This document shows, piece after piece, positions 9,569 to 59,051 of a stretch of 64,000 nt of DNA (the first letter of the stretch is position 1; each line of letters begins with the position of its first letter). Source of the DNA: Chloroflexota bacterium (GTDB taxonomy: Bacteria; Chloroflexota; UBA11872); contig OZ244802.1 in assembly GCA_965220135.1 (NCBI GenBank), positions 2,532,239 to 2,596,238 on the forward strand. The letters are read 5' to 3'. The translations under genes were made by a program, and so were the position numbers. The notes beneath the pieces were generated by a model. That model was not told the DNA's origin. It worked only from the letters and a program-made list of their open reading frames with translations, and did no database searches.

Positions 9569-10396
9569 TCACTCCGGCAGCAGAATCCCGAGGAGGGCGT
9601 CCAGGTCCTCCGGATCGCGATATTCGATCTGGATGCGCCCGCGCTTTCGGCTGCCCACGAAGCGGACGCGCGTGCCCAGCCGCCACTGCAGGCGCTCGGC
9701 GACGTGCTCCAACTCCACGTCGGGCGGCCGCGGCGCCTTCAGCTGGCGGCGGGCCTCCCGCTCCGCCTGGCGCAGGTTGAGACGGCCGGTCAGCATTCGC
9801 AGAAACAGCCGGCGCCGGGTCTCGTGATCGCTAATTCCGACCAGCGTGCGCCCATGGCTTTCCGAGATCCGCCCCTCGGCCAGGGCCTGACGCATGTCGC
9901 TGTCCAGCTTCTGCAGGCGCAGCGTGTTGGTCACTGACGAGCGGCTCGTACCCACCACCGCCGCCACCTGGGCCTGGGTCATGCCGTAGTCATCGATCAG
10001 CGCCTGATAGGCGTGCGCCTTCTCCAGCGGGCCCAGGTCCCTGCGCTGGAGATTCTCGACCAGCGCCAACTCCACCCGTCGCCGCGCATCGGCCGCGATG
10101 ACGGTCACCGGAACCACTGTCAGGCCCGCTTTACGCGCTGCCCGCCAGCGGCGTTCGCCGGCTACCAGCAGAAACCGTCCGGGCCGATCCGGTGTGGGGG
10201 TTACCAGCAATGGCTGCAGTACACCGTGCCGGCCGATTGAGTCGGCCAGGCTTTCCTCATCCTCGGAGACGAACCTGCGACGCGGCTGCTGCGGGTTGGG
10301 TTCAATGCGATCCAGGGGGAGGGTGCGCCAATCGCCGGTCACCGACTCCCCAAGCTCGTCCGGCTGCTTGCACGAGCCTTTCCGCAATTGCCTCAC
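9569..10396 (-). CDS. parB: ParB/Spo0J family chromosome partitioning protein
   Basis: ParB box motifs: LQPLLVTP...LVAGERRWRAARKAGL and the HTH segment GMTQAQVAAVVGTSRSSVTNTLRL. GTG start. Located directly after dnaA and the oriC-like spacer. Confidence 0.85.
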   Translation of the reverse strand: MRQLRKGSCKQPDELGESVTGDWRTLPLDRIEPNPQQPRRRFVSEDEESLADSIGRHGVLQPLLVTPTPDRPGRFLLVAGERRWRAARKAGLTVVPVTVIAADARRRVELALVENLQRRDLGPLEKAHAYQALIDDYGMTQAQVAAVVGTSRSSVTNTLRLQKLDSDMRQALAEGRISESHGRTLVGISDHETRRRLFLRMLTGRLNLRQAEREARRQLKAPRPPDVELEHVAERLQWRLGTRVRFVGSRKRGRIQIEYRDPEDLDALLGILLPE

Positions 10397-12862: not shown

Positions 12863-15034
12863 TTGGCTGCCTCGGCTGGTGGCGATGCTGGTCTGCTCCT
12901 GGGTGTGAGCGCGAGTCCGGCCCGCGCGCTGGACTGCGGATCAGCCGCCGGCATCCCGCTGGACGACGGCTGTCTTTTTACGATCACGGGCTCCGACACG
13001 CCGGAGCCGGCAGACGGATTCGCCGTGACCAACGCCGACGGCGTGCCCCTCTGGGACTTCGTCCGGGGCAAGGATCCGCAGGCGATCGGCTATCCCATCA
13101 GCCAGCGCTGGACGGACGGGCCGTTCACCCTGCAGGCGTTCCAGAAAGTGATTCTGCAGTGGGACCCGCAGCGCGGGCGGATGAACTACTACAACACGCT
13201 GGACGCGCTGGCGACCCGCTATGCGTATGTCGCGCTGCCCAACGTACCGGGCCACGACGTGCTGGCCGAGGACACCGGAGCTGCATTTGCCCAAGTGATC
13301 CGGAATCACCTGGCAATCCTGGAGCAGAACGACCGGATCAAGGCGCGGTTCCTGGCGGAGCCGGACTGGCTGAACCTGTACGGGCTGCCAATCCGGTACG
13401 AGGAGCGGGCGGTCAACGGCAATCCGCTGGGCCTGCAGGCGCTACGCACGCAGCGGACGGTGTTCGAAGTGTGGAACGTGCCGGCGCCGGGAACGACACC
13501 TGGCCGCGTGCAACTGCAGAACGTGCCGGACAAGGTCAAACGGCTAAGCAACGTGATCATCCCGGACGCTGCCAAGACGCCGGCAGCGCTGCCCGAGCCG
13601 GCGCTCCCGCCCAAGATCAGGTCCCTGCCCTGGGCCGCTGACGGCGTGACGGATTCCGAGCAGCGACTCGCCACTAACCTTCAGCGGATCGCAGGGGCGT
13701 CGCAGGCGATCTATGGGCGCCTGCTGAGCGGGCCGGCCGCGAGCTGGTTGGAAGGCCAGCCATCCGAGCGAACGCTCGGGGCAACCGAACTGCTCGTGAC
13801 CATTGCCGAGCACCCCTGGTCGGCAGCCGTGCGGCAGCAACTCTTGGACCACACCCTGCTCCGACTGGTCCTGAACGAAGGCGAAGATGACTGGCCACGG
13901 TCGTTCCGACGGATCCTCGAGAAGCCCTGGACGAGGGACGGCGTGTCGTGGGATGAACTCAAACTGATCGACGAGTTCGCCTATATGCATCGAAGATTGC
14001 CGACCAACCCGTGGTCCGGTTCGTATTTCGGAAAAAGCCAGGAGATGGACGTACTGTTGGGGCAAATGCTCGACATGCCGTTTCTGCAGACGATTGAAGG
14101 CTACGAGGTGTCGATCATAGGCAGACTGAGCGGAACCGGACAGGGCATGGATTACCTGCAGAAGGCTGTAACCGGCTGGATACACAGGGGTGGCATTACG
14201 GACGATCAAGTATTGGCATACCTGTATCCGCTGTTTCCGCGAAATACGATTGATCCAGACGACTTCAGAGAGCATCCCGAGCGGCTCGGTGAGCTTCTCG
14301 ATTTAAACCGGCTGGGTATCACCATCGAAAGACGCACCGTCAGCCTGCCGCATACCGGGAACCTGCTCTTGATCATACTTCGAATGGGCGCGACGTTACC
14401 GTCCACAATGGATGTCCTGGAGCAGGAGACGCGCAGGATCGAGGCGCTCATTGGAGAACCGCTGAAAAAGAGATATACCATTCTGCTTCTCTGGGAGCAG
14501 CCACCAGACACGGTGCTGTTACCGTCAGCGTATAATGCCGGATATTTTATGCAGTTTGACGCTGAGCATTTCTCGCGCGCGAGTGTATCGACTGTCACGA
14601 AATCCAACCTTGCTTACTTGTTGTCGGACTACTATTGGACAGGAGCAGACCCTTGGATAAGCAGGGGAGCCGCCATGTTCCTGGTGATGCGAGGGGGACA
14701 TGCCAGTCGCGAACAACTGTACGACGTACACTCGAGGTGTGAGACTGAACGGATCGTAGATCTCCTGGATGATATGCGTGACTTTGGTGTGTGTTATCAG
14801 TCGCTCGGGGCCTCTCTGTTCTTGGAGATATACGACGCACTGGGCGACAGGGCGTTTAAGGATGGATTTGCGCGCTTGGAGAGAGCGGTGGACGCGGACG
14901 GCTTATATTGTCTTTGCGGACTTGAACGTAAGGAGTCAGTGGTTCACGCAAGGGAGTCGTTCACGACCGCGGCCACGGAGGAAGTCAGGGGCGTGGTGGA
15001 GGGAATCATCACGCGGAGGTATTACGGGCAGTAG
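12863..15034 (+). CDS. large hypothetical protein with N-terminal LGFP-like repeats
   Basis: 723 aa. LGFP-like units: IGYPISQRWTDGPFTLQAFQKVILQWD and YGLPIRYEERAVNGNPLGLQALRTQRTVFEVW. The remainder has no recognisable motif. TTG start; the N-terminus and signal peptide are uncertain. Confidence 0.6.
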   Translation: MAASAGGDAGLLLGVSASPARALDCGSAAGIPLDDGCLFTITGSDTPEPADGFAVTNADGVPLWDFVRGKDPQAIGYPISQRWTDGPFTLQAFQKVILQWDPQRGRMNYYNTLDALATRYAYVALPNVPGHDVLAEDTGAAFAQVIRNHLAILEQNDRIKARFLAEPDWLNLYGLPIRYEERAVNGNPLGLQALRTQRTVFEVWNVPAPGTTPGRVQLQNVPDKVKRLSNVIIPDAAKTPAALPEPALPPKIRSLPWAADGVTDSEQRLATNLQRIAGASQAIYGRLLSGPAASWLEGQPSERTLGATELLVTIAEHPWSAAVRQQLLDHTLLRLVLNEGEDDWPRSFRRILEKPWTRDGVSWDELKLIDEFAYMHRRLPTNPWSGSYFGKSQEMDVLLGQMLDMPFLQTIEGYEVSIIGRLSGTGQGMDYLQKAVTGWIHRGGITDDQVLAYLYPLFPRNTIDPDDFREHPERLGELLDLNRLGITIERRTVSLPHTGNLLLIILRMGATLPSTMDVLEQETRRIEALIGEPLKKRYTILLLWEQPPDTVLLPSAYNAGYFMQFDAEHFSRASVSTVTKSNLAYLLSDYYWTGADPWISRGAAMFLVMRGGHASREQLYDVHSRCETERIVDLLDDMRDFGVCYQSLGASLFLEIYDALGDRAFKDGFARLERAVDADGLYCLCGLERKESVVHARESFTTAATEEVRGVVEGIITRRYYGQ

Positions 15035-47814: not shown

Positions 47815-48702
47815 GTGCAACGGAACGCGGACAGCAAAACAGGCGGAGCCTGCTGCGCACCGCTGCGCCTTCCCGACCTTGTACGCGATCTGATCAGCCT
47901 CGGCGTCCGCCCCGGCGACCTCCTCATGGTCCACAGCTCCCTCCGTAGCCTCGGACTCGTCGAGGGCGGACCGGAAACCGTCGTCGATGCCCTCCTGCAA
48001 GCCCTTGGGCCCCAGGGCACCCTGGTTGTCCCCACGTTCACCTATCCGACGGCCGGGGATCCCGCGTTCGTTTTCGATCCGGTCCACACGCCCTCGCAGA
48101 TGGGCGCGATCTCCGAGGCGGCGCGCCAGCGACCCAACACCCACCGCAGCATCCATCTCGCGCACAGCATCGCCGCCATCGGGCCGCTGGCCCAGACCAT
48201 CGCGACCTCCGGCGGCGCGTCCGGCTGGGACGCCGACAGCCCCATGCGGCAGGTATTCGATCGCAACGGCCGCTACCTGCTGCTCGGCGTCCCCTACCAG
48301 AACCTCACCGCCATGCACCTGTGCGAAGTGTGGCTGGGACTGCCGTACCGGCAGCCTCGTACGTCGGAAGGCCGCATGCGTCATCCCGACGGCTCCACCA
48401 CGCCCCTGGTCAACATCGGCACCCCGCCGCTCCCCGGCCACCCCGGCAGCGACTACAACCGCCTCGGCCAGCGCATGGAAGACGCAGGCCTCGTCAAACT
48501 AGGCCCCGTAGGCAACGCCATCGCCCGTCTCCTCGACGCCCAAGACATTCGTGCAGCAGCCCGCCAACTCACCCGCCAGGACCCAAACGGCTTCCTCCAG
48601 CAGGGCCACGCCGTCACCAAACTGACCTACGGCCACACGGTCAATTCAGACAAGGGCGAACACTGCACCGTCGATCCAACCCGCATCTACGACGCGACCT
48701 GA
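47815..48702 (+). CDS. AAC(3)-family aminoglycoside N-acetyltransferase-like protein
   Basis: LMVHSSLRSLGLVEGGPETVVDALLQALGPQGTLVVPTFTY and SPMRQVFDRNGRYLLLGVPYQNLTAMHLCE match the conserved AAC(3) (Antibiotic_NAT) blocks. Confidence 0.75.
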   Translation: MQRNADSKTGGACCAPLRLPDLVRDLISLGVRPGDLLMVHSSLRSLGLVEGGPETVVDALLQALGPQGTLVVPTFTYPTAGDPAFVFDPVHTPSQMGAISEAARQRPNTHRSIHLAHSIAAIGPLAQTIATSGGASGWDADSPMRQVFDRNGRYLLLGVPYQNLTAMHLCEVWLGLPYRQPRTSEGRMRHPDGSTTPLVNIGTPPLPGHPGSDYNRLGQRMEDAGLVKLGPVGNAIARLLDAQDIRAAARQLTRQDPNGFLQQGHAVTKLTYGHTVNSDKGEHCTVDPTRIYDAT

Positions 48703-49339: not shown

Positions 49340-49735
49340 ATGAGAATCCACCTCGCCGGCGTCTTCGTAGACGACCAGCAAAAGGCGCTTCGCTTTTACA
49401 CCGAAACGCTTGGCTTCCAGCTCAAGCACAACATTCCCTTGGGCGAATACGCCTGGATCACCGTGGTATCCCCGGAAGACCCTGAGGGGACGGAGTTCCT
49501 GCTCGAGCCTGATGCCCATCCCGCGGTCCGTCCGTTCGTGCAGGCGCTTGTGGAGGACGGGATCCCCAGCACCTCCTTCGCGGTCGACGACGTGCAAGCC
49601 GAATACGAGCGTCTCCAGGCAAAAGGCGTGCAATTCGTACAGCCGCCAACCGACCTCGGCCCGGTCATCACCGCGGTACTCGACGATACCTGCGGCAACC
49701 TGATCCAGATCCAGGAGCAGAAACCCCAACCCTAA
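49340..49735 (+). CDS. VOC family protein (glyoxalase/bleomycin-resistance fold), 4 nt downstream of arsR
   Basis: 131 aa. RIHLAGVFVDDQQKALRFYTETLGFQL...ITVVSPEDPEGTEFLL...CGNLIQIQEQ. Confidence 0.8.
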   Translation: MRIHLAGVFVDDQQKALRFYTETLGFQLKHNIPLGEYAWITVVSPEDPEGTEFLLEPDAHPAVRPFVQALVEDGIPSTSFAVDDVQAEYERLQAKGVQFVQPPTDLGPVITAVLDDTCGNLIQIQEQKPQP

Positions 49736-49838
49736 CGATCGTGACCAGTCGCCCCAGCCCCCATGGGTCGTCGCCGGTCGCCAATCTCAACGGGTCGCAC
49801 CAGAGCATCAAAGGCACGGCTTCGCTGTTGCAGGGAAG

Positions 49839-50126
49839 TCAGGTGCCTGTCGAGGCGGTCCGCGGATGCCCTCCGAGAGTCCTTTCGCGAGCGGCGCTCA
49901 AGGACGGTGAGACGAAAACACCTCGGGTGCGTCCCAGCCTCAGGTTGTCCTCGGCAATCGCGTAAGCCACCGCATACCCCTCGGGCCCGGATATCTCTAC
50001 ATTCGAGTTGCGCAGCGCCTGCTCAATCGAATCAATCCGCAAATGCACCGCCCCAATCTCCCGCGCCAGCCCCGCGGCAACCGCTATCTTTCCCACGGCC
50101 GGAAGACCTCCGAATATCAGCAGCAT
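49839..50126 (-). pseudogene. truncated P-loop kinase (AAA_33-like) gene fragment
   Basis: MLLIFGGLPAVGKIAVAAGLAREIGAVHLRIDSIEQALRNSN... carries the Walker A GxxxxGK. After about 75 aa the frame degenerates (…RTRGVFVSPSLSAARERTLGGHPRT*), so the expected ~170-aa kinase body is missing. Confidence 0.45.
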
Positions 50127-50534
50127 GTGATCATGGATACTGCGCCTGCTGCGCATTCATTCGACCGCTTGAATAGTAGCGACGCGAATGCCTGTCCCGA
50201 CTGTGCGCTGACATGTGTTCGTGGGCCGCCTCGGCGGTATGTGTCCTTTCACTGGATCGTGATGTCGTATGGCGAGTCGTAGAGAGGCCACTAGATGGAT
50301 AAATCTGAGGGAAATGATTGGCAAGAGCGAATTACCACAGAATCACTCCCACCATCCTAGGAGCACATTCGGTTGACAGCCGATAGCATTGGACTTGTAC
50401 GTCACTTAGCAATTGCATTTTGCCAAAAGATTTGGTGACATCTCAGTCTGTGGCCGGACGCAAAACCTCGGCAGGCATAGCAAATCGCGAAATGCGGGTC
50501 ACGCGGACATTGGGTTCATGATAGGATTCCTATA

Positions 50535-53258
50535 GTGCCTGCTTCGTCACTTCGTGAACGAATCGTTGCCTTTCTTCAGGTCTCAAGCCGCCTAGAGATG
50601 TTTCGAATACCGACTTTGCGCTTATTGCTGCAGGGCACGGCTGTGTCAAAGGTGCGGGTCTCGCTTTCCGGTGTTCTGGTCCTCCTGCCGCTCTTTGGTG
50701 TCATCGTGGCCCTCGGTATCGCGGAAACGCCACCAATTCCGTGCCTTCCAGACCCAAGGGACGCCACGGCGGTCCTTGGAACTATTCTGGCCGCACAAGT
50801 AACGATCACAGCCCTAAGTCTAGCCGTGACACTCTTCATGATGCAGGCGATAAGTTCGAGAACGGATGTCGACGACCGGATGTACGTTGAATATGTTCGA
50901 CGTTCTTGGATACGCGTGTTCTTTTGGGGGAGTCTCACAGCCGTCGGCGTTACGGGTACCCTCCTCGTCCGCGAAGGGTTCATCGCTGGGTCGGGCGCAT
51001 CGATCGATGATCTGCGGAACACTAGCAACTTCGTTCTGACGGCAGCGATAGCTTCTATTCTTAACATGATGCTCGTGGGTGCTCTTTTTGAGCGGTCGAT
51101 TCACTACTCTCGGCCGCACCGGTGGCGGGACCTGCGTAGGGATCTTGCGAAATCCGATGTGCGGGAAGCAGTAAAGGCCTTCGTGCAGCGGACCCGCCGC
51201 ACTCAGGACGCGGAGACAGCTGGTGGATCCGACTTCACAGTCTTGCTTCCCGACTCAACTGAAGGCTCTGCCGATGAGGCAGTAAGGGCCTTGCTGGACG
51301 ATGCACGGAGGGCGATGTCGGAGCGGCGACATGAGGAGTTTAGTCGGTCCTTGGACTTCATTCGAGAACTCATCGACTACGCAATGGAGGAACTAAAGGG
51401 ATCGGGTATCCAATGGGAAGCTCCAGGAACTCAACCAAGGTGGCCGCCCTTGAAGGAGTTAAGCCGAAGTCTCTACACATTCCGAGAAGACGTGATTCGT
51501 AGCGGTGACCGAGAGTACATACTCGGACTTCTGCGCTTTGACTACAGACTTACAAGTGCGGGGATGCGTGCGCGTTGTGGTGAATTGTTCAGTGTCGGCT
51601 TGAGCGGGCACCGATGGAATTACCAGATTGCGATCCGGTTCGGTACAGGAGAGTTCCAAGAGTTGCTCCGCGACCGATTCTCTCAGAACGCGAACATGAT
51701 CATGATACGCGTAGAACCAGTTGAGGCATTTCCGTACGCCAGCGAATTGGTTAAACAGCAAGAAAGGTTGCTATCAGATGCGATTAACAGCGACCGTCCG
51801 ACCGATTTTGACGAGCTGCATACTGGCTTTCTGGACTGCCTCCGTGCAATTCGTCTTCACTGGCGAGTTGATAGCCAGACTTCTCCAAGAGTATTTCAGC
51901 TATATGAAAAGCTGGAGCAAGCCTACCGCATTGTCCTGATGGGGCTCGGAGGGCGCGCTATGGTTCTGGCTCAGCAGGACAGGGTGGCCAGGGTGAAATC
52001 GTTCTTGGACGTAGCCCGTCGATCACACGTCGACCTTTGGCAAATGGCAGACGACTTAGTGGTTGCACTTGCGTATGAGGACAACGATAACTTCTCTATT
52101 TGGCAAGAATGGGAGACCGAACGCGCTCGACCATACCAAGCAATGAGTATAGTGTCCGAGCGTTATCCCCTAACGTTCTTTGTCTTACGACTGATGGATC
52201 TAGCTTCCGATTCGATGCGAGTTTTTGGCTTGCACGGCAGGTCGCAGCGGGTGCTTGATTGGTTCACGAACAACGTTGAAAGCATTGGACACTTTGTAGA
52301 CACGGACCTGGCCCCAGCCTTTGAGGAGCGAATTGAACTCGCCAAGGGGATCCTTCTAGCCGCTGTCAGTGAGGATGAAAAGGCGGAAGACTATGACATT
52401 ATCAACCGTGAAATTAGTTCAGCCAGGGTCGCGACGCTAAGGTCTGAGGTGTATATGGCTGCTTTTGGCAGTAACACACTAGAACGCCTGTTCGAGCGAG
52501 CAGATGCGCGCTTACACCTTCCAGCAGATGCTGGTGACGATCCTCCGGAACGCGTGATTCAGGTGTTAGAGCATAAGGGTTATCTCACAGAGCCGTCTGT
52601 TGGTGCGCTCATCGACTATGGCCCGCTTGATGGTCACCAATGGGGCTATGATCTGTCTGTCGACGTGCTGCAGAGATTCTGCGAGGCGGTCGATGAGGCG
52701 ACTGAGCTGATGGTTTCGCTCGATACGCCTGGCGAAGTGCTGCAAGGAATTGACTTGGCTATAGATGACCTTTCCGCTCCGGACCAATTGGCTGTGGTAT
52801 TGGCGGGAGATTGGACTCAGATTAAAGTAGGGCTCAACACAGAGAATCCGGAAGGTCATGAGGCGTCTTGGACGTTGTCGCGCGCCGACCGGGTGGGAGA
52901 GATAGGGCGTTACCAAGGCCATCCAATCCTCAGCGCTCAAGACTATGAAGATCGGTGCGTGTACGTTGTTGATCTCGCTGGGTGGGGTCAGTTCGTACGC
53001 GCACGGACAGTCGGGGAGCACGACTTGCGCATCGCGATAAAGCCGATCTCAGTCAATCGAGCCAAGAAACTCCTAGCAGCCAATCCCAAGCATTTCGCCA
53101 GTCAGCCAGACGAGGAGTCAAAGCTCCGGAAGCTACAAACCTATGTTGAGGTGGTAATCGGTGCCCGCACTGGGTTCCGCGTCGCAGACGCTACCCGTGC
53201 TCGGCGGATTGTCCCGATCGGCCAAGTGGAGGAGAGTGGCGAAGTGGCTCAACGCTAG
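50535..53258 (+). CDS. large membrane-anchored hypothetical protein (four N-terminal TM helices plus ~700-aa cytoplasmic domain of unknown function), low-GC
   Basis: 907 aa (the real start is possibly the internal MFRIPTLRL). TM helices near res 45-65, 85-110, 130-150 and 165-185. The rest is helix-rich with no Walker, nuclease or other motif I can assign. GC is clearly below its surroundings. Confidence 0.7.
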   Translation: MPASSLRERIVAFLQVSSRLEMFRIPTLRLLLQGTAVSKVRVSLSGVLVLLPLFGVIVALGIAETPPIPCLPDPRDATAVLGTILAAQVTITALSLAVTLFMMQAISSRTDVDDRMYVEYVRRSWIRVFFWGSLTAVGVTGTLLVREGFIAGSGASIDDLRNTSNFVLTAAIASILNMMLVGALFERSIHYSRPHRWRDLRRDLAKSDVREAVKAFVQRTRRTQDAETAGGSDFTVLLPDSTEGSADEAVRALLDDARRAMSERRHEEFSRSLDFIRELIDYAMEELKGSGIQWEAPGTQPRWPPLKELSRSLYTFREDVIRSGDREYILGLLRFDYRLTSAGMRARCGELFSVGLSGHRWNYQIAIRFGTGEFQELLRDRFSQNANMIMIRVEPVEAFPYASELVKQQERLLSDAINSDRPTDFDELHTGFLDCLRAIRLHWRVDSQTSPRVFQLYEKLEQAYRIVLMGLGGRAMVLAQQDRVARVKSFLDVARRSHVDLWQMADDLVVALAYEDNDNFSIWQEWETERARPYQAMSIVSERYPLTFFVLRLMDLASDSMRVFGLHGRSQRVLDWFTNNVESIGHFVDTDLAPAFEERIELAKGILLAAVSEDEKAEDYDIINREISSARVATLRSEVYMAAFGSNTLERLFERADARLHLPADAGDDPPERVIQVLEHKGYLTEPSVGALIDYGPLDGHQWGYDLSVDVLQRFCEAVDEATELMVSLDTPGEVLQGIDLAIDDLSAPDQLAVVLAGDWTQIKVGLNTENPEGHEASWTLSRADRVGEIGRYQGHPILSAQDYEDRCVYVVDLAGWGQFVRARTVGEHDLRIAIKPISVNRAKKLLAANPKHFASQPDEESKLRKLQTYVEVVIGARTGFRVADATRARRIVPIGQVEESGEVAQR

Positions 53259-53304
53259 GCAACGCATCGAGACTCCTGGTCACTCAATGTGGCCTCCAAT
53301 AGTC

Positions 53305-54027
53305 TTAGAGCAGAGGACTCACGTCGGAAGCGACGCCGAAATGGTCCGAGAGTTTCCTCTCGCCGTGGATGTTGCTGATCGCAGCCACGGAGTCGACCGC
53401 CCAATCCGCACTAAAGGCAATGTGATCGATGCTCTTGCGTCCCTGGAAGGCAAGATCCGCCGTCATGATCCGCAGGTTCGGCTCAAAGGCCTCTTGGAGC
53501 GCCAGCCGAAGCGCCCGAGGCGCCCGGCTTCCCTGCCCGATTCTCTGGTTGAAATCCCCCATCACGATCAGACGCTTGGCGTCCACCTGTTCGAGCACTT
53601 CGGAAAGCCCGGTCAGGTACTCCTCATGGTCCTCCCACCGCCCTCTGCGCTCCGCCCCCCGCCGAGCCTCGGTCCGCGACCCAAACCACGGAATGCAGAT
53701 CCCAATCACCGCCACCTCGCCCACCGACGTCTGCGTCACGCCCGACACAAACCGCCCCGGCGGCATCGAGTCCATCCCCAGGTCATCAGCCTGGTTCCAC
53801 GGTTCCCTCGACCAGAGCAACACCTTACGCCGGTTCTTCTGTGGCCCGTATCCATACTCCGGCCGCGAGCAGATCGCGTGCCCAGATTGGGCAATTAGCT
53901 CGTCATGCGTCTCGGTCAGACAGATAATCTCCGGGCCATGTCGATCAATACGACCCAGGATTTCAGGCGTTCGCCACGACCTCGGCGTAGCAAACTGAAC
54001 ATTCCAGTTGACAATGCGCAGAGACAC
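53305..54027 (-). CDS. endonuclease/exonuclease/phosphatase (EEP, DNase-I-like) family protein
   Basis: MSLRIVNWNVQFAT...ICLTETHDE...LIVMGDFNQR...SIDHIAFSADW...LSDHFGV covers the canonical EEP blocks (N/E catalytic pair, GDFN, SDH). Confidence 0.8.
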   Translation of the reverse strand: MSLRIVNWNVQFATPRSWRTPEILGRIDRHGPEIICLTETHDELIAQSGHAICSRPEYGYGPQKNRRKVLLWSREPWNQADDLGMDSMPPGRFVSGVTQTSVGEVAVIGICIPWFGSRTEARRGAERRGRWEDHEEYLTGLSEVLEQVDAKRLIVMGDFNQRIGQGSRAPRALRLALQEAFEPNLRIMTADLAFQGRKSIDHIAFSADWAVDSVAAISNIHGERKLSDHFGVASDVSPLL

Positions 54028-54195
54028 AACCTTACGTCTTTCGCGTATATGCCAAGGCGACTAGTCGTTCTCTTTGACGCTCATTAGCAATAGGTTCATT
54101 CACAGGCTAGCATGCTTGCGTCTGGGGCGATCAATGTGCCACGCTGAACATCAACGCTATTCAGTCATAGATGCTGGGATGCTAGGGAGACTGCC

Positions 54196-55161
54196 ATGCC
54201 TGAACGTGAAGGCGAGAGCGAACAGTTGGCCGTTCGCGACAAGTGGGAGCATGAGGCACACAACTTCACGCCTTGGCTGGCCGAGAATCTTCAGGCGCTG
54301 GGCGATTCGCTGGGGTTAAAGCTGGAATGGATCCAATCGGAAGTGCCGATAGGTCCGTATTTTCTCGACATTCTGGCGAGAGAGAGTCGCGAGGATGTGA
54401 AGGTAGCGATTGAGAATCAGTTGGAAGAGACCAATCTCCACCATCTCGGCCAGCTGCTCACTTATGCGACCGGATGCGGAGCGCACATTGCTATATGGGT
54501 GGCGCCGGAATTTGGCTACGAGCACGCCCAGGCTCTCCATCTGCTCAACGAATGGACGACTGAGCGGATTCGCTTCTACGGCGTGAAAGTCGAGGTCATC
54601 AAGAAGGCTGGTGCTCCGTGTCCAGAGCCGAGGTTCCGCGAGATCGTCTACCCCGGCGGCTGGAACAAGTCGGCCACTCTTCCGTCCGGAGAGATGCCGC
54701 TATCCAAACGGCGGCATCACGAGTTCTTTCAACCCATCGTTAGTAGGCTGCTGGCAGACGGCTTTGCCGATAGTGCGTACCAGAGATTTGACCAGGCTGA
54801 TCGCACCTTCCCCTCCCGCCTCCACAAGGGCATAGCTTACGCAGTGTCTTTCTACAAAGCGAGGGCTTGGGTATCACTCCATATTGAATTGGATGATATT
54901 CAGCAGACTAAGCAGGTGTTCGATGAGTTGATGACCTCCCGAGAGCAGGTCCAGGAGAGTGTGATCGTCGGTTCCGGCAGAGATTGGCGGTGGAACAGGT
55001 ATGACAAGTTCTTGTTCTCTAGCATTAGCATCGTAGGCGACGGGTCAATCAACGATCCTCCGGCAAACCTGGAGGAGACCAGAGCCTGGATGCTCGATCT
55101 GCTACCGAAGCTTAAGGAGGTGTTCGACCCGCACCTCGAGGAGATTTTGGCTTCCATGTAG
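54196..55161 (+). CDS. hypothetical protein with N-terminal PD-(D/E)xK-like nuclease-fold signature
   Basis: FTPWLAENLQALGDSLGLKLEWIQSEVPIGPYFLDILARESREDVKVAIENQLEETNLHHLGQLLTYATG is a D...E-N-Q...HLGQ block characteristic of a restriction-endonuclease-like fold family (DUF4268-like). The C-terminal 150 aa are unassigned. Confidence 0.55.
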   Translation: MPEREGESEQLAVRDKWEHEAHNFTPWLAENLQALGDSLGLKLEWIQSEVPIGPYFLDILARESREDVKVAIENQLEETNLHHLGQLLTYATGCGAHIAIWVAPEFGYEHAQALHLLNEWTTERIRFYGVKVEVIKKAGAPCPEPRFREIVYPGGWNKSATLPSGEMPLSKRRHHEFFQPIVSRLLADGFADSAYQRFDQADRTFPSRLHKGIAYAVSFYKARAWVSLHIELDDIQQTKQVFDELMTSREQVQESVIVGSGRDWRWNRYDKFLFSSISIVGDGSINDPPANLEETRAWMLDLLPKLKEVFDPHLEEILASM

Positions 55162-55464
55162 CCATCAATAGGTTGGACCGGCCGCCATCCGTCCAGTGCT
55201 ACACAAGACCATCGGCGAGGCCGGCAGGCTCAAGAAGTCCTATTGGACGGGAAGTCACTATGCCTACTCCGCCACGTCGGAGAAATTCGTGATAGCGACC
55301 TCGCCTTCCGGAAACTCCGGCACGATCTTGAGCTTGCCGCCTACAGCGTCAATGTTAGACCGCAGACTTGGCTCGCCAGCTTCGGCCTGACGCGGCGTAC
55401 ATTGCTGAGTCTCACAGTGGAACCGGCCGTGCATAAGCTGTAAACGATTTGTCCTTTTGCAGCC

Positions 55465-57105
55465 TCACACCCAGCTCGCAACCGTCTCGACAATCCACTC
55501 ACCGTTTGCCTGGGCGGAGGCTCTGATAGTCACATACTCCTGCGGACTAGTGGACACTTGATGAGAGATATCCATACGCTTGTATTGAGACTCTATCAAC
55601 TGGCCATCGCTGCTGTAGAGCCCGGCGCGACCCAAGTGGTCGACAATAAACTGATAGGTAGTTCGATACTGTTGTTCAACCAGACAGCCCGACCCTACGT
55701 TCACTCGAAGGCCAGGCTCACAATTCTCAGTAATCTCTGGGAGCGGCGAAGGGGCAGTAGAAGTCGGCGGTGCTGACTGATTCTGTCGGTTGTCTCCCCA
55801 ACAGGCGATTGATCCACCTTCGAGAATTCCGCAGCCGTGTGATAGACCCGTGGAGACATCGATGAATGCATGGCTCGCGGGAATCCGGTCGAGCTCGATG
55901 CTACCACCCAGTAGGGTAGTCCAACATGTCGCCGAGCCTTCCAAATCAAGCCCGCATCGATATGCTTCCGAACCATGACTGACATGGCTGCCAAGGTGAG
56001 AAAGCCGGAGATTAGGAAATGGGTGGTGGATGTCTGCCGAAAATTTGCTCCAGCAAGCCACAGTCCCGTCAACTGTCAAGCCGCACGTACTATCGAAACC
56101 TCCACTTATGGATATAAACTGTTCTTGTAGATACAGGACTGTCTGATCTTTAACATTCCCCCAGCATAAGGCGGAGTTGTCCTGTCGAATACCGCACGTA
56201 TAGTCGAAGCTCGCAGTAATTGCCGCGAACTTCTCCCCCGGTGGAACCGATGACTGGCCTGCCCAGTTGGCGCCCCAGCAAACCGCTGAACCATCCGTTC
56301 GGAGAGCGCACGCGTGGCTGTCTCCGCTGCTAATGGCGGTGAACTTTTCGTCTTGCGGAGGAGGGCCCAGCGGTTGTGGGTGGCCGAGGATCGGTCCGTT
56401 CGTCTCAGGCCGTCCTCCCCAGCATGCTGCGGAACCATCCACGCGGAGTGCGCATACATGAGCGGCGCCGCTACTGACCGCGATGAATTTCTCGTCGTGC
56501 GGAGGCGTCGGCTGACCATACTCGCCGCTTCCCCAGCACACGACCGTTCCGTTGGCTCGAAGCGCGCAGGTATGTAAGTGCCCGCTGGTGATATCAGTGA
56601 AGCGGTCAGCGCCACTCGATTGGACGGCGGGGCGCTCCGGCTGAGGGGCTGCGAGGTCGAACGCCCAACCAAACACGCCGCGTACGTCCTCCCGGTGATC
56701 GTTTCGGCAAGCCGGTTCGGCCTGGTCGCCAAACACTCGCTGGTAGATCTCCACGTTGTCGTGGTTGCCGAGGTGGTTCTCGACGATGTCGTTGAGCTCC
56801 ACGCAGTCCGCCGGCCACGCGAGGTCGGGAACGTCCGACTGCGATTCCGAGCCAGCCTCATCGAACGCCCACGCAAACACTCCGCGCACGTCATCCCGGT
56901 GGTCGTTCTGACAGGCCTGTTCGGCTTGGTCGCCAAACACCCGCTGATAGATCCCAACGTTGCTGTCGTTCCCCAGGTGCGCCTCGACAATGTCGTTCAG
57001 ATCAACACAAGTAGTTGGCCACTGGGCAAAGACTGGCGTCGCGAGTGCCGCAGTTGTTAAGGCCGCAACAACCACCGCTGCGCAGATCGCCCTGGTGATT
57101 CTCAT
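55465..57105 (-). CDS. secreted RCC1-repeat (beta-propeller) protein with duplicated N-terminal ~70-aa module
   Basis: Signal peptide MRITRAICAAVVVAALTTAALATPVFAQ. Two near-identical units: CVDLNDIVEAHLGNDSNVGIYQRVFGDQAEQACQNDHRDDVRGVFAWAFD and CVELNDIVENHLGNHDNVEIYQRVFGDQAEPACRNDHREDVRGVFGWAFD. Multiple RCC1-like repeats follow (HTCALRANGTVVCWGSGEYGQ, HVCALRVDGSAACWG, HACALRTDGSAVCWGANWAGQ and others). Confidence 0.75.
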   Translation of the reverse strand: MRITRAICAAVVVAALTTAALATPVFAQWPTTCVDLNDIVEAHLGNDSNVGIYQRVFGDQAEQACQNDHRDDVRGVFAWAFDEAGSESQSDVPDLAWPADCVELNDIVENHLGNHDNVEIYQRVFGDQAEPACRNDHREDVRGVFGWAFDLAAPQPERPAVQSSGADRFTDITSGHLHTCALRANGTVVCWGSGEYGQPTPPHDEKFIAVSSGAAHVCALRVDGSAACWGGRPETNGPILGHPQPLGPPPQDEKFTAISSGDSHACALRTDGSAVCWGANWAGQSSVPPGEKFAAITASFDYTCGIRQDNSALCWGNVKDQTVLYLQEQFISISGGFDSTCGLTVDGTVACWSKFSADIHHPFPNLRLSHLGSHVSHGSEAYRCGLDLEGSATCWTTLLGGSIELDRIPASHAFIDVSTGLSHGCGILEGGSIACWGDNRQNQSAPPTSTAPSPLPEITENCEPGLRVNVGSGCLVEQQYRTTYQFIVDHLGRAGLYSSDGQLIESQYKRMDISHQVSTSPQEYVTIRASAQANGEWIVETVASWV

Positions 57106-57242
57106 TGCACCTCGCCTCTCGTCAATTGGCAGGAGACAGTTCCTGGCGCCCGTGCATGGACTGTTGACTCCGTGTTCTGCGGGTGACGCTCGCCGTCAGG
57201 TCGTGTTCCGCACATCGGATCGGCGATGAGCACGACAAACAG

Positions 57243-57415
57243 CACCGCCGGAAACCTTTGCACAACGCCCCTCGCCCTCGCGAGAGGGACGGCTCTTGTT
57301 CCCTCTTGCCGTGGGAGAGGGTCGGGGTGAGGGTCTTCCGGGCAACCGCCCCAGGATTGCGCAAAGGTCTCTCCTGGGGGAGAGGGTCAGGGTGAGGGGT
57401 CTTCCGGGCGCAACG
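57243..57415. repeat. copy B of the dispersed repeat family, containing an internal ~38-bp tandem direct repeat
   Basis: 57243-57320 aligns to 48744-48822. The unit tgggagagggtcggggtgagggtcttccgggcaac (57305-57340) recurs as gggggagagggtcagggtgaggggtcttccgggcgcaac (57374-57412). The flanking cctttgcacaacgcc and ggattgcgcaaaggtc form an imperfect inverted pair. Confidence 0.6.
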
Positions 57416-57581
57416 CTTCCCAACACCCCAACCCGCGACGGCCTCCATCGCACGCCCGCGCCCGGCGAAGCTCATGCAGCGGCATTTCGGCCAACAACTC
57501 CCGCTTCACTTCGTCCACGCGCCGACGTCGCTCCGGGGTGAAGTCCTTGGTCAGTTCGCTAAACGGATGTCGTCCAGTCAT
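57387..57581 (-). pseudogene. 5' fragment of an XRE/HigA-like HTH antitoxin-family gene that runs into the repeat element
   Basis: MTGRHPFSELTKDFTPERRRRVDEVKRELLAEMPLHELRRARA matches the N-terminal leader plus helix 1 of XRE antitoxin-type HTH proteins. The ORF continues as non-homologous sequence (CDGGRRGLGCWEALRPEDPSP*) inside the 57300-57415 repeat. Confidence 0.45.
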
Positions 57582-57722
57582 TCGATCAACCCCTCCTTTC
57601 GCAACTCCGCCAGCGGCACAAACGCCTCATGGAACCTGTCGTTCCCCGTCTTGTCTCAGCCACCTCAAGGCCTGTCGCCGTTACCATGACTCTTGACGAG
57701 ACTCCCTGAATCCCTCAGCCCC

Positions 57723-59051
57723 ATGCTCGACACCCTCATGTCCGTCGACGAGGCGATCTTCACGCGCCGGACCTGCCGCAAGTTTCGGAAGGACCCGGTG
57801 TCGCCGGAGACCCTCACCAAGATCATCGACGCCGCGCGCTACGCGCCCAGTTCCTGCAACCTGCAGCTCTGGGACTTCGTGCTCGTCAACGACCCCGAGA
57901 CCAAGGCCGAAGTCGCGGAAGAAACCCGCTACGTCCACCTGGCCCCGGTCTCGCTCTTCGTCTCCTACGGCAACAACTACACCCGCGAGAACTACGCCTG
58001 GGTCCAGAGCGCCGCCGCCGCCATCCAGAACATGATGCTCATGGCCCACAGCCTCGGCGTGGCCAGCTGCTGGGTCGACACCCTGGGCGATGTCGACCGC
58101 ATTCGCCGCATTCTGGGCCTGCCGGCCGAGCGCGAAATCCTGGCTCTGGTGCTCTTCGGCTACCCGGAGTTGATCCCCAAGGCCCCCCGCCGCCGCGCCA
58201 TCGACATCCTTCTGCACTACGACAAGTACAAGGGCCGTCTCAACTGGCCCAGCAGCGATGACCCCGAGGAATGGACGCTCGAACAAATCCGCGACTTCCA
58301 GATGGCCAAAATCCGCAACGGCGCCCGCTACAACAAACCCGTGCCCTCGGAACGCGACGCCGTCCTGGAAGCGCTCGAAGACTTCGTCGACGTGCAGGAA
58401 GGCCGCTGGCTGGACGTCCTACCGCTCACCGGCCTCTACACCGAGGAGATCGCTTCCAGGTACCCCAAAGTCGACCTCACCTTCGCCGAAATGACCGACC
58501 AGGTCTTCGAATTCGTCCAGGACCGCGCCCCGCGCACCCTGCGTCACGAGCTCTACCCCGACGCCTTCCACGAGGGCCCCGAGGGCTACGACGTGATGTC
58601 CCTGGTCTTTCGCCTCGAGGGCTACCCGCGCGACGAGCGCCGTAGATTCCTCTCAACCATGCGCCGCCGCATCAACGACGACGGCCAGCTCTTCCTGGCC
58701 TTCATCAACCGCCGCTCCTACCACCGCCCGCTGCGCTGGATGCGCGGCCGCATCGGCCACTCCGGCGTCGAATACGCCCTGGCGCCGGACCCCAGCCTCG
58801 GCCCGTTCAAGGCCGCCACGCCCGGTGAAATCCGCGCCGACCTCCGCGCCACCGGCTGGCGCGTGCGTGACCGCCGCCACTTCTTCGCCATTCCCCCGGG
58901 CGACGAAATCGAGTTCCGCGCCGGTCGCAAGGGCCGCAAAGTCAAGCTCGCCGGCCAGACCCTCACCCGCATCAGCCGCCTGCTCCAGCCGGTCGACCCG
59001 GTCCTCGGGCCAGTGGCCCGCATCCACGCCTGGGACGTCGTACCGGCCTGA
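57723..59051 (+). CDS. nitroreductase-family domain fused to a ~270-aa C-terminal domain of unknown function
   Basis: N-terminal IFTRRTCRKFRKDPV...IIDAARYAPSSCNLQLWDFVLV...SCW are nitroreductase motifs (~res 1-180). The C-terminal half has no clear motif; WLDVLPLTGLYTEEIA is only weakly Rossmann or methyltransferase motif-I-like. Confidence 0.65.
   Translation: MLDTLMSVDEAIFTRRTCRKFRKDPVSPETLTKIIDAARYAPSSCNLQLWDFVLVNDPETKAEVAEETRYVHLAPVSLFVSYGNNYTRENYAWVQSAAAAIQNMMLMAHSLGVASCWVDTLGDVDRIRRILGLPAEREILALVLFGYPELIPKAPRRRAIDILLHYDKYKGRLNWPSSDDPEEWTLEQIRDFQMAKIRNGARYNKPVPSERDAVLEALEDFVDVQEGRWLDVLPLTGLYTEEIASRYPKVDLTFAEMTDQVFEFVQDRAPRTLRHELYPDAFHEGPEGYDVMSLVFRLEGYPRDERRRFLSTMRRRINDDGQLFLAFINRRSYHRPLRWMRGRIGHSGVEYALAPDPSLGPFKAATPGEIRADLRATGWRVRDRRHFFAIPPGDEIEFRAGRKGRKVKLAGQTLTRISRLLQPVDPVLGPVARIHAWDVVPA

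Follow-up and report, generated by a model that had tools for sequence, protein, structure and literature searches.

An optional linkage of an EEP-fold enzyme and a PDC-S11 protein in a variable low-GC hotspot of a Chloroflexota genome

Two genes whose products are predicted to adopt different nuclease folds lie head to head in a low-GC island of a Chloroflexota genome (contig OZ244802.1). Does such a pair constitute one machine, or do two separate enzymes share a site? We analyzed a stretch of 64,000 nucleotides that contains the two genes, referred to here as the window, and its features are listed in Table 1. One gene encodes a protein of the endonuclease/exonuclease/phosphatase (EEP) fold and the other a member of the phage-defence candidate family PDC-S11, abbreviated S11. 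An ORF check found both genes intact and precisely where a sequence-only reading of the window had placed them. That reading had suggested that the two, next to a large membrane protein, form a defence or competition module. We favor, with a probability of about 0.5, two separately acting nuclease-type genes in one variable low-GC hotspot that do not constitute an obligate module.

Table 1. Features of the hotspot, in coordinates of the window
Feature	Position	Strand	Basis or description
907-aa protein (M907), convergent on the EEP gene	50535..53258	+	3-4 N-terminal TM helices and a ~720-aa soluble region
EEP-fold enzyme, 240 aa, predicted cytoplasmic	53305..54027	-	Pfam, conserved residues, AF2 and Foldseek
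Divergent intergenic region, 168 nt, common to EEP and S11	54028..54195	.	Alignment of 7 loci
10-bp palindrome CGACTAGTCG, inside the EEP-S11 spacer	54058-54067		Sequence reading
PDC-S11 gene, 321 aa, two domains	54196-55161	+	PADLOC PDC-S11, Pfam DUF4268, AF2
Predicted N-terminal PD-(D/E)xK-type domain of S11, ~residues 1-155	54196..54660	+	AF2, conservation, Foldseek
Putative active site of S11: E20/E49, D58, E73-N-Q75, H83	54367-54369 (D58); 54412-54420 (E73-N-Q75)		
C-terminal DUF4268 domain of S11, ~residues 165-321	54688..55161	+	Pfam PF14088, Foldseek
RCC1-repeat protein, 546 aa, N-terminal signal/anchor	55465..57105	-	Pfam RCC1_2, E = 1.8e-34

The hotspot is bounded by a glyoxalase gene on one side and a nitroreductase gene on the other. 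GC and GC3 values are 0.615 and 0.743 for the EEP gene, 0.556 and 0.680 for the S11 gene, and 0.548 and 0.575 for the gene of the 907-aa protein, compared with 0.67-0.70 and 0.82-0.90 in the flanking genes, in agreement with the foreign composition proposed for the island at the outset. The RCC1 gene also resides in the low-GC block, outside the nuclease pair. In the closest syntenic genome, L001, the flanks are 92-94% identical to those of the window and the EEP-S11-RCC1 block is 90.7% identical. The M907 segment is missing there, and the slot that it holds in the window is filled by a second EEP gene, designated c4. A search for island borders found no tRNA in the window and no direct or inverted flanking repeats between positions 49700 and 57800, and an Rfam scan of positions 49500-58000 gave no relevant match.

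The membrane protein does not belong to a conserved unit. M907 has predicted transmembrane segments at residues 46-64, 84-102 and 166-184, and matches no Pfam, PADLOC or PHROG family. Besides its absence from L001, it lies next to an EEP gene in one of 79 loci (the best 79 of 279 EEP loci) and in one further locus, L168. Homologues with 59-63% identity occupy the same slot in L014 and L168, and others occur without EEP, either alone (L172) or beside a recombinase, a TIR protein and an MmeI-type RM enzyme (L173). M907 is a swappable variable cassette, not a conserved partner, and its proposed place in a module is not supported. The RCC1-repeat protein, which has a hydrophobic segment at residues 7-25, is also encoded in L001, L009 and L018. 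Among loci that bear the EEP-S11 pair, its gene is missing from L003 (no called gene) and from L021 and L023 (no tblastn match), and weak RCC1-repeat similarity (43-44%) lies about 1.8-2.9 kb from S11 in L003 and L012. With two nuclease folds, a multi-pass membrane protein and a secreted RCC1-repeat protein side by side, the locus might be read as a competition module, in which secreted or contact-delivered nuclease toxins are accompanied by a membrane protein that serves as exporter or immunity factor. We regard this as highly unlikely: both nucleases lack a signal peptide and a delivery domain, no small immunity gene adjoins either of them, conservation of the neighbourhood does not extend to the membrane protein, and several pair-bearing loci have no RCC1 gene. 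Nothing at the locus indicates competition or a secreted toxin.

The EEP protein matches the Pfam Exo_endo_phos model (PF03372) with E = 1.3e-12 and 48.4 bits (gathering cut-off 24.5), and the alignment of its residues 7-229 with model positions 2-225 of 225 covers the whole domain. Among 37 homologues of 65-88% identity, no variation occurs at N9, E39, D158, N160, H202, D228 and H229, and conservation of D201 is at least 90%. The catalytic set is complete, with the Asn of motif I, the Glu of motif II, the Asp and Asn of GDxN, the Asp and His of IDH and the Asp-His of SDH, as the sequence-only reading had claimed. The AF2 model (pTM 0.80) shows the four-layer alpha/beta sandwich of the fold, and a Foldseek search of the PDB with this model gave 195 matches at E <= 1e-3, the first 50 being EEP enzymes without exception. 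The nearest folds are those of TDP2, NExo, the LINE-1 endonuclease, Nocturnin, APE1 and ExoIII (E from 4e-11 to 2e-9). The protein resembles TDP2, Neisseria NExo, the LINE-1 endonuclease and ExoIII/APE1 in fold and catalytic residues (TM 0.57-0.69), but it shares only 12-19% identity with them, and its residues 115-129 constitute an Arg-rich insertion, disordered in the model. PDB sequence searches with the EEP protein, the S11 protein or the S11 profile found nothing meaningful. No hydrophobic N-terminus, signal segment, transmembrane segment or hydrophobic loop was found in the EEP protein, consistent with the cytoplasmic location first suggested for it.

The fold does not settle the substrate class, because TDP2, NExo, Nocturnin and sphingomyelinase matches lie within about two logs of E-value of one another. 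An enzyme of the sphingomyelinase or lipid/inositol phosphatase type, or a housekeeping AP endonuclease of the ExoIII type whose adjacency to S11 is irrelevant, would fit the presence of sphingomyelinases (E about 1.5e-9 to 4e-9) and of APE1 and ExoIII among the Foldseek matches, the weak similarity to NCBIfam xth models (best E 2.7e-5), and the metabolic genes, such as those for ETF and copper amine oxidase, that flank some EEP loci. Several observations stand against it. Sphingomyelinases enter the Foldseek list at rank 29 and superpose with an rmsd of ~7 A, compared with 4.3-5.5 A for TDP2 and NExo, inositol phosphatases are absent from the top 50 matches, and the protein has none of the hydrophobic segments noted above; we thus rejected assignment to either subfamily. 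Membership in ExoIII/Xth was likewise rejected, as the protein scores 23.8 bits against TIGR00633 (cut-off 99.05) and 19.9 bits against TIGR00195 (cut-off 182.55), with only its N-terminal 160 residues aligning to the xth models. Two EEP copies in one MAG (L014 and L017), a GC content below that of the genome, recurrent nuclease and helicase neighbours, and strong PADLOC matches within 2.5 kb and within 10 kb of EEP loci also speak against a lipid-directed or housekeeping role, which we consider very improbable. The predicted structure supports a nuclease- or phosphodiesterase-like enzyme more than a lipid-directed one, in line with the original guess of a nuclease or phosphatase.

The S11 protein was assigned to its family by the PADLOC PDC-S11 model PDLC04911 (E = 8.4e-67, residues 7-315 against positions 7-313 of 318), and two further PDC-S11 models, PDLC04912 and PDLC04914, match it with E about 1e-58 and 1e-57. 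The family is large, with 4,190 representatives of 50%-identity clusters at E <= 1e-3, and is spread over bacteria, archaeal plasmids and a few phages. Of S11, the EEP protein and M907, only S11 has a counterpart in PHROGs, a single family of unknown function. In the AF2 model of S11 (pLDDT 95.7), the N-terminal domain is arranged a(20-39)-b(43-52)-b(55-63)-b(68-74)-a(81-93)-b(98-103), the order expected of a PD-(D/E)xK core, with D58 on strand 2 and E73 and Q75 on strand 3. This matches the restriction-endonuclease-like signature D...ENQ...HLGQ noticed in the sequence, which corresponds to D58, E73-N74-Q75 and H83-L84-G85-Q86. Across 95 relatives of 28-87% identity, H83 is invariant, and conservation reaches at least 90% at E20, E49, D58, E73, N74, Q75, L84 and G85; Q86 agrees with the consensus but is not among the positions conserved at that level. 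Of the acidic and lysine catalytic residues expected of such a core, the acidic pair, D58 and E73, is conserved, and the position of the lysine is a glutamine (Q75) throughout the family, giving a D...E-x-Q motif.

Foldseek matched the S11 N-terminal domain to SfsA (4dav, E 1.3e-2, probability 0.92), and BFVD gave local matches of 96-113 columns (3.7-4.6 A rmsd, probability 1.00) to phage proteins named 'restriction endonuclease' or 'RecB-family nuclease'. The model, conservation and these matches support a restriction-endonuclease-like PD-(D/E)xK core. No curated PD-(D/E)xK profile scored above threshold in the 95 family members, and none matched the window protein at all; sub-threshold Pfam matches occur in 11 of the 95 (YhcG_C in 6, best E 0.008; NucS_C in 4, best E 0.0067; MTES_1575 in 1). 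The C-terminal domain is DUF4268, a family that the sequence-only reading had named for this gene (PF14088, E = 2.9e-8, 34.2 bits against a cut-off of 27, residues 211-313), and DUF4268 was found in 90 of 95 relatives. With the topology a-b-b-b-a-b-b-a in the AF2 model, its best PDB matches are YbjN/AmyR (E 3.5e-4 to 7e-4), and T3SS chaperones also match, which suggests a fold like that of YbjN and type III secretion chaperones and a presumed role in substrate recognition.

These features leave room for S11 as a DNA- or protein-binding regulator or sensor with a dead E-x-Q site and a YbjN/AmyR-like C-terminal domain. The family-wide absence of the canonical lysine, the putative regulators YbjN and AmyR as top PDB folds, and the lack of a Pfam nuclease family above threshold would fit such a protein. 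However, the conservation of the acidic, Gln and His residues down to 28% identity argues for a working metal site, and the local folds match restriction endonucleases and RecB-family nucleases. Glutamine also replaces the lysine of (D/E)xK in BglII and NotI, which are active enzymes (PMC3025569); the D58...E73-N-Q75 arrangement parallels their D...E-x-Q variant. BglII and NotI differ from S11 in being sequence-specific type II enzymes with cognate methyltransferases, and no sequence homology between S11 and either was detected. A further argument comes from MdgA and MdgB, in which a nuclease domain is joined to DUF4268 and defence is abolished when alanine takes the place of a residue with a putative catalytic role in that nuclease domain (E77A in MdgA) (PMC12366544). 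We consider a non-nuclease S11 improbable.

MdgA and MdgB protect E. coli from T4 but not from T4-GT7, which has unmodified cytosine, and MdgA cleaves DNA in vitro in a modification-dependent manner (PMC12366544). S11 resembles them, as far as their descriptions allow a comparison, in being one polypeptide with a nuclease domain, DUF4268 and no methyltransferase, and its E73 and E77 lie within a conserved IENQLE block. The two were described as having no homology to known defences (PMC12366544), a statement that may or may not exclude a match to PDC-S11. DUF4268 is also fused to GmrSD type IV enzymes and is predicted to bind DNA; there it serves as a C-terminal accessory to a nuclease directed against modified DNA, and S11 has it in the same C-terminal position, although the GmrSD nuclease consists of DUF262 (ParB-like) and DUF1524 (HNH) and that of S11 of a PD-(D/E)xK core. 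As in type IV restriction, no methyltransferase domain accompanies the nuclease, either in the island genes or in the annotation of the syntenic loci L001 and L003.

How often do the two genes occur together? There are 279 EEP relatives in species-representative genomes, and among the best 79 of these loci the family is restricted to Chloroflexota, all being Chloroflexota/Dehalococcoidia except for one MAG titled just 'bacterium'. An S11 gene lies within 10 kb of EEP in 5 of the best 79 species-level loci, leaving 74 without S11, and none of 80 distant S11 loci has a relative of EEP, c3, c4 or M907. Plasmid copies of S11 adjoin IS66 elements, a NERD protein and helicase, or a type I RM system, and no EEP, and S11 is present without EEP in L004 and L005. 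The EEP gene is found next to S11 in one Chloroflexota clade only; co-occurrence is not consistent across lineages. The link between EEP and S11 is optional, not that of an obligate module, and since EEP mostly occurs without S11 the two are probably hotspot neighbours and not one machine.

In relatives, EEP is more commonly found in an operon with c3 and c4 than paired with S11. The c3 protein is a canonical PD-(D/E)xK protein (P-D...E-S-K) and c4 is a second, divergent EEP; in 7 loci, 2 nt separate the stop of c3 from the start of EEP, and c4 is found ~54 nt downstream in the same orientation. In L009, L017 and L019, c3 and c4 are fused into one ~666-aa protein. In 44 of 67 loci with a called EEP ORF, no c3, c4, c3-c4 fusion or S11 is an immediate neighbour. 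Neither the EEP family nor the c3 family has relatives among IMG/VR viral contigs, so a phage origin is not supported. Because c3, the usual partner of EEP, is also a PD-(D/E)xK protein, S11 could functionally replace it. In L009, the S11 gene is embedded on the opposite strand between c3 and EEP; that c3 is kept beside it makes S11 look inserted, not a replacement. Homology between S11 and c3 is not supported (hhalign probability 0.6%, E 0.098); the sole alignment superposes D58/D69, E73/E84 and Q75/K86.

Within the clade that carries both genes, the unit is well preserved. The divergent arrangement of EEP, a spacer of 168-173 nt and S11 occurs in at least four contexts (window/L001/L009/L168; L003/L012; L021; L023). 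The spacer is 168 nt long in five loci, 170 nt in L023 and 173 nt in L021, and has a mean column identity of 85% over 7 loci, a conservation equal to that of coding DNA. L021 and L023 share it although their two proteins are only 72-75% and 63-66% identical to those of the window, compared with 84-87% and 83-89% in close loci. The paired proteins diverge in step, and their persistence exceeds that expected for chance adjacency in a turnover-prone hotspot. A GGGAG Shine-Dalgarno sequence precedes the S11 ATG in the spacer. A sigma-70 consensus scan found no promoter there, and sigma-70 and terminator scans performed no better than on shuffled sequence.

This preservation is one reason to weigh a real two-nuclease module, in which EEP would be a shared accessory or effector of a PD-(D/E)xK sensor-nuclease, either c3 or S11. 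The S11 version in the window would be placed under one bidirectional control region, and S11 would cut foreign DNA first and leave the ends to EEP for processing or degradation, or the roles would be exchanged. Besides the conserved cassette and the co-divergence of its proteins, such a module is favored by the 2-nt operonic junction of EEP with the other PD-(D/E)xK protein, c3, and by known fusions of the two folds, namely c3-c4 and ArmC of ARMADA II, a defence-system protein with YprA helicase, Vsr-type PD-(D/E)xK and EEP domains. In architecture, ArmC recalls both the c3-c4 fusions of relatives and their helicase-EEP operons. The EEP domain of ArmC, joined to the helicase, has been predicted to lack activity, while in the window EEP is a protein of its own and its active site is intact. 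A ~115-aa domain that many S11 homologues carry as a fusion or have encoded immediately upstream is also found ahead of a c3-like gene in L083, a further shared partner; other Chloroflexota S11 members carry this domain N-terminally and the window copy lacks it. Against a module stand the co-occurrence counts, the single-gene status of PDC-S11 in PADLOC, the insertion-like arrangement in L009 and the lack of significant homology between S11 and c3. EEP and S11 are moreover divergent and not co-transcribed, and in the EEP tree the S11-linked members are scattered among the c3-linked ones. We judge such a module possible but unlikely.

Under the preferred reading of two separately acting genes, S11 would be a stand-alone enzyme that works as a restriction nuclease of the type IV or MdgA-like kind. 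Foreign, probably modified, DNA would be recognized by its DUF4268 domain and cut by its PD-(D/E)xK domain. In the latter, D58 and E73 would form the metal site, Q75 would stand in for the canonical lysine, and E20, E49 and H83 would be likely to assist. EEP would be an autonomous cytoplasmic Mg2+-dependent phosphodiesterase that most likely acts on DNA, by nicking it or by cleaning 3' or 5' ends; we hold it to be autonomous because its catalytic residues are invariant and yet most of its loci lack S11. It is an uncharacterized DNA-phosphodiesterase-like enzyme, usually found without PDC-S11, and in related genomes it is the constant member of a Chloroflexota operon in the order c3, EEP, c4. 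The operon in the window has decayed, with c3 lost and c4 swapped for the 907-aa cassette, and an S11 cassette with its own spacer sits upstream of EEP.

The proposal of a defence module survives in part. Defence is supported for S11 by its membership in a PADLOC candidate family; EEP is linked to defence by association, and PADLOC matches neither it nor the c3, c4 and helicase proteins of these neighbourhoods. PDC systems are candidates of one or several genes that were found inside BREX, DISARM or type I RM systems, and PDC-S11 was nominated solely on such embedding (Payne et al. 2024 preprint); a correlative observation on PDC-S11 exists in haloarchaea. The window protein resembles other PDC-S11 members in length and two-domain layout, and most of its relatives are solitary in mobile or defence contexts, with no obligatory partner in the 80 distant loci or the plasmid homologues. 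It is unlike them, together with a small Chloroflexota clade, in lying head to head with EEP across a conserved spacer. Strong PADLOC matches occur near EEP loci both within 2.5 kb (set A5) and at 6.5-10 kb (set A6); as they are abundant in both sets, the setting of EEP is defence-rich and the far set is not a background, so that the comparison of the two is not a measure of enrichment.

For the PDC-S11 family, these results provide a concrete putative active site (D58, E73, Q75 and H83) and a fold assignment for DUF4268, together with an architectural link to MdgA and MdgB, nucleases that experiments have validated. Immunity in Chloroflexota is little known, and an intact EEP enzyme recurs there beside PD-(D/E)xK nucleases, a second EEP and giant helicases. 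At present a lead, the c3-EEP-c4 operon would, if it is a defence system, add the EEP fold as a class of active effector.

GC content is 0.66 over the window and dips to 0.53-0.61 between ~50,000 and ~57,200. Four long ORFs occupy this stretch, and the noted nuclease pair, the endonuclease/exonuclease/phosphatase-fold protein EEP and the PADLOC PDC-S11 protein S11, are exactly the second and third (Table). GC3 is 0.58-0.74 in the four genes versus 0.82-0.90 in flanking genes, confirming the foreign composition that a sequence-only reading had ascribed to the pair. The RCC1-repeat protein is secreted or anchored, and a tandem-duplicated unit in its N-terminal region encodes a Cys-containing motif (WP..CV.LNDIVE.HLGN...). 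An Antibiotic_NAT gene lies ~2.7 kb left of the low-GC block (1.8 kb gene-to-gene); ArsR-type HTH and glyoxalase genes come next.

Table. Positions of features in the window and in comparison loci.
Feature	Locus	Position	Strand	Description
Low-GC patch	window	14001-15000		second patch; GC 0.547 vs ~0.68 around
Antibiotic_NAT gene	window	47815-48702	+	aminoglycoside N3-acetyltransferase-like; identity inferred from synteny with L001 2465-3352
Kinase remnant	window	49839-50156	-	AAA_33/KTI12-like P-loop; 105 aa vs 164 aa in L001
M907	window	50535-53258	+	907-aa ORF in low-GC stretch
EEP	window	53305-54027	-	240-aa ORF in low-GC stretch
CGACTAGTCG	window	54058-54067		perfect 10-bp spacer palindrome
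S11	window	54196-55161	+	321-aa ORF in low-GC stretch
Apparent HTH_37 remnants	window	55236-55368; 57453-57662	-	HigA-like antitoxin; strand is that of ORF 57387-57581
RCC1-repeat protein	window	55465-57105	-	546-aa ORF in low-GC stretch
RCC1 duplicated unit	window	56657-56818; 56861-57022		162 nt, 78% identical
~115-aa domain	L004	7653-7994		proteins with the domain: P0023, P0037, P0241
~115-aa domain	L005	7675-8001
~115-aa domain	L083	7600-7941
c3-EEP-c4 operon	L009	7555-8622; 10617-12746
c3-EEP-c4 operon	L014, L015, L017	ending at 9998
c3-EEP-c4 operon	L016, L018
DEAD+UvrD helicase	L028	4787-9958
DEAD+UvrD helicase	L007	2786-7963
DEAD+UvrD helicase	L026	3785-8935

EEP and S11 are divergent. 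The head-to-head pair recurs in L001/L010, L003, L009, L012, L021, L023 and L168, whose surroundings are of at least four kinds; the spacer measures 168 nt as in the window except in L023 (170) and L021 (173). The spacer is 85% conserved, including L021 and L023, with proteins only 63-75% identical. The CTAGTC core of its palindrome is invariant in 7/7 aligned cassettes, making the palindrome a possible operator; the pair includes no regulator gene. Such persistence is what a cooperative S11-EEP module would predict. The distribution of the two genes argues against the pair as a module: 279 EEP relatives turned up in species-representative genomes, and among the best 79 of these loci, all Chloroflexota/Dehalococcoidia except one MAG titled only 'bacterium', S11 lies within 10 kb of EEP in only five, while EEP was found in 0/80 distant S11 loci from metagenomes. 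S11 homologues without EEP occur in L004 and L005 (62% and 58% identity), and plasmid copies of S11 are solitary, neighboured by IS66 elements, a NERD protein and helicase, or a type I RM system. On a rough NJ tree, the EEPs linked to S11 fall within one clade, mixed with members having other partners. Together these loci and the tree indicate that EEP and S11 operate independently in most lineages; their cassette is a clade-specific, persistent arrangement, and we consider cooperation between the two unlikely.

In the flanks, identity to L001 (GCA_022820025) is 92-94%, and across the EEP-S11-RCC1 block it is 90.7%. The adjoining slot holds c4, a second EEP, and an intact 164-aa AAA_33 kinase in L001, versus M907, a membrane-anchored protein, and a truncated 105-aa kinase in the window. 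Homology extends over only the first ~66 codons; L168 has a similar remnant of 117 aa. M907 has 3-4 N-terminal TM helices and no recognisable domain; in L014 and L168 this slot is taken by homologues of it (59-63% identity). None of its 214 homologues carries a Pfam domain, and the only one with a name is a 'hypothetical protein'. Outside this slot it occurs either alone or, as with a 44% homologue in L173, in the company of a serine recombinase, a TIR protein and an enzyme of the MmeI RM type. M907 is exchangeable cargo, and it is no partner of the nuclease pair. The order in L009 is c3 (a PD-(D/E)xK protein), S11 on the opposite strand, EEP and a c3-c4 fusion, so arranged that S11 looks like a gene inserted at the c3-EEP junction; PDC-S11 was first nominated through such embedding (Payne et al. 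2024 preprint). S11 is directly followed by an HTH_37 and Gp49 (HigBA-like) pair in L003 and L012. In L001, L009 and the window, the RCC1 gene separates S11 from this pair. In the window alone the pair appears decayed, its apparent remnants being recognised by DNA similarity to HTH_37-bearing loci.

PADLOC PDC-S11 covers S11 at full length (E=8.4e-67), in a family of 4,190 50%-identity cluster representatives (E<=1e-3), and S11 is a new member of this catalogued candidate family. In S11 Pfam finds a C-terminal DUF4268 (E=2.9e-8) and no other domain. Among 95 full-length relatives (28-87% identity) F24 and H83 are invariant and W17, E20, T25, P26, W27, E49, G53, D58, I72, E73, N74, Q75, L84, G85, Y90, W101, H110 and N118 are at least 90% conserved; window S11 holds every one. 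The AF2 model (pLDDT 95.7) has two domains, the N-terminal one ordered a(20-39) b(43-52) b(55-63) b(68-74) a(81-93) b(98-103), with D58 on strand 2 and E73/Q75 on strand 3, a PD-(D/E)xK arrangement with Gln replacing Lys. The D...ENQ...HLGQ signature read from the sequence is conserved at D58, E73-N74-Q75 and H83-L84-G85, with Gln at the lysine position. This substitution would favour an inactive S11, against which stand the conserved site and the documented Gln variant of BglII and NotI, both active enzymes (PMC3025569). Fold searches matched the N-domain to SfsA (prob 0.92) and, in BFVD, locally (96-113 columns, 3.7-4.6 A) to phage proteins annotated as restriction endonuclease or RecB-family nuclease; YhcG_C, NucS_C and MTES_1575 matches in 11 family members were all sub-threshold. 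Support for a nuclease fold is moderate. The C-domain (a-b-b-b-a-b-b-a) resembles YbjN/AmyR and type III secretion chaperones in structure search (E 3.5e-4). DUF4268, predicted to bind DNA, serves GmrSD type IV enzymes as an accessory domain and is also present in the single-gene nucleases MdgA and MdgB, which protect E. coli from T4 and not from unmodified-cytosine T4-GT7; alanine at a putative catalytic residue (E77A in MdgA) abolishes defence, and modified T4 DNA is the preferred substrate of purified MdgA (PMC12366544). A ~115-aa domain (WREAVTYRDTWPHEYVVIKKDG...LNRALLYRDRRDFVI) without a Pfam family is fused to, or a separate ORF upstream of, many Chloroflexota PDC-S11 homologues; in L083 it sits ahead of a c3-like gene that itself lies upstream of an EEP. 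The window lacks this domain.

Along its whole length EEP is matched by Pfam Exo_endo_phos (E=1.3e-12, 48.4 bits vs cut-off 24.5). As the sequence-only reading held, its catalytic set is complete, N9, E39, D158, N160, H202, D228 and H229 being invariant and D201 at least 90% conserved in 37 homologues (65-88% identity), and a sequence scan found no hydrophobic segment. Structure search with the AF2 model (pLDDT 74.6, pTM 0.80; an Arg-rich insertion at 115-129 is disordered) returned EEP enzymes only, best TDP2, an uncharacterised Beutenbergia EEP, Neisseria NExo, LINE-1 endonuclease, Nocturnin, APE1 and ExoIII (E 4e-11 to 2e-9, TM 0.57-0.69). From the Pfam match, conserved residues, predicted fold and lack of a hydrophobic segment, we infer an intact, cytoplasmic, metal-dependent phosphodiesterase. 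Sphingomyelinases rank lower (rmsd ~7 A). Nucleic acid is the more likely substrate, though the fold alone is compatible with more than one subfamily. EEP scored below the ExoIII equivalog cut-off (23.8 bits vs 99). Searches found no PADLOC or PHROG family and no direct PDB relative, and the family is undescribed and, among the best 79 of 279 relatives, Chloroflexota-restricted.

Clustering all ORFs of these 79 loci revealed hypervariable flanks with three recurrent neighbours. The first, c3 (~357 aa), has no Pfam or PADLOC match and carries an invariant P68-D69...E84-S85-K86, a textbook PD-(D/E)xK motif; it lies directly upstream of EEP on the same strand in 10 loci, and in 7 of these its stop and the EEP start are 2 nt apart. 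In at least 10 loci the second, the divergent c4 (~305 aa, Pfam E 7e-5), follows EEP on the same strand after ~54 nt. The third is a c3-c4 fusion (~666 aa) in L009, L017 and L019, a combination with precedent in ARMADA II ArmC, which combines PD-(D/E)xK and EEP. Because c3 and c4 also accompany EEPs from distant branches of the tree, c3-EEP-c4 has the look of an old operon. Elsewhere a DEAD/Helicase_C and UvrD protein (1716-1725 aa, one of them 1723 aa) lies upstream of EEP on the same strand (gap 12-37 nt in L028 and L007). Other neighbours include a DEAD helicase with methyltransferase and an NYN protein; some loci adjoin plainly metabolic genes. Strong PADLOC matches, including DpdF-like, PsyrT, HamB, BrxH, type I MTase, DarG, Pycsar and AbiE, occur both within 2.5 kb and at 6.5-10 kb from EEP, so the setting is often defence-rich, as judged at the EEP loci themselves.

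We give roughly even odds (about 0.5) to two autonomous enzymes. S11 would act alone as a type IV-like or MdgA-like nuclease, its DUF4268 recognising foreign, probably modified, DNA and its D58/E73/Q75 site cutting it; no methyltransferase was found among the island genes (Pfam) or the L001 syntenic annotation. EEP would be an autonomous DNA phosphodiesterase, the orphaned core of a c3-EEP-c4 operon. A cooperative S11-EEP module receives half that weight, and inactive S11, a non-nucleic-acid EEP and a role in competition share the rest. The pair is solid as an observation, S11 itself is ordinary, and the EEP operon is a moderate lead: c3-EEP-c4 may be an undescribed multi-nuclease system.
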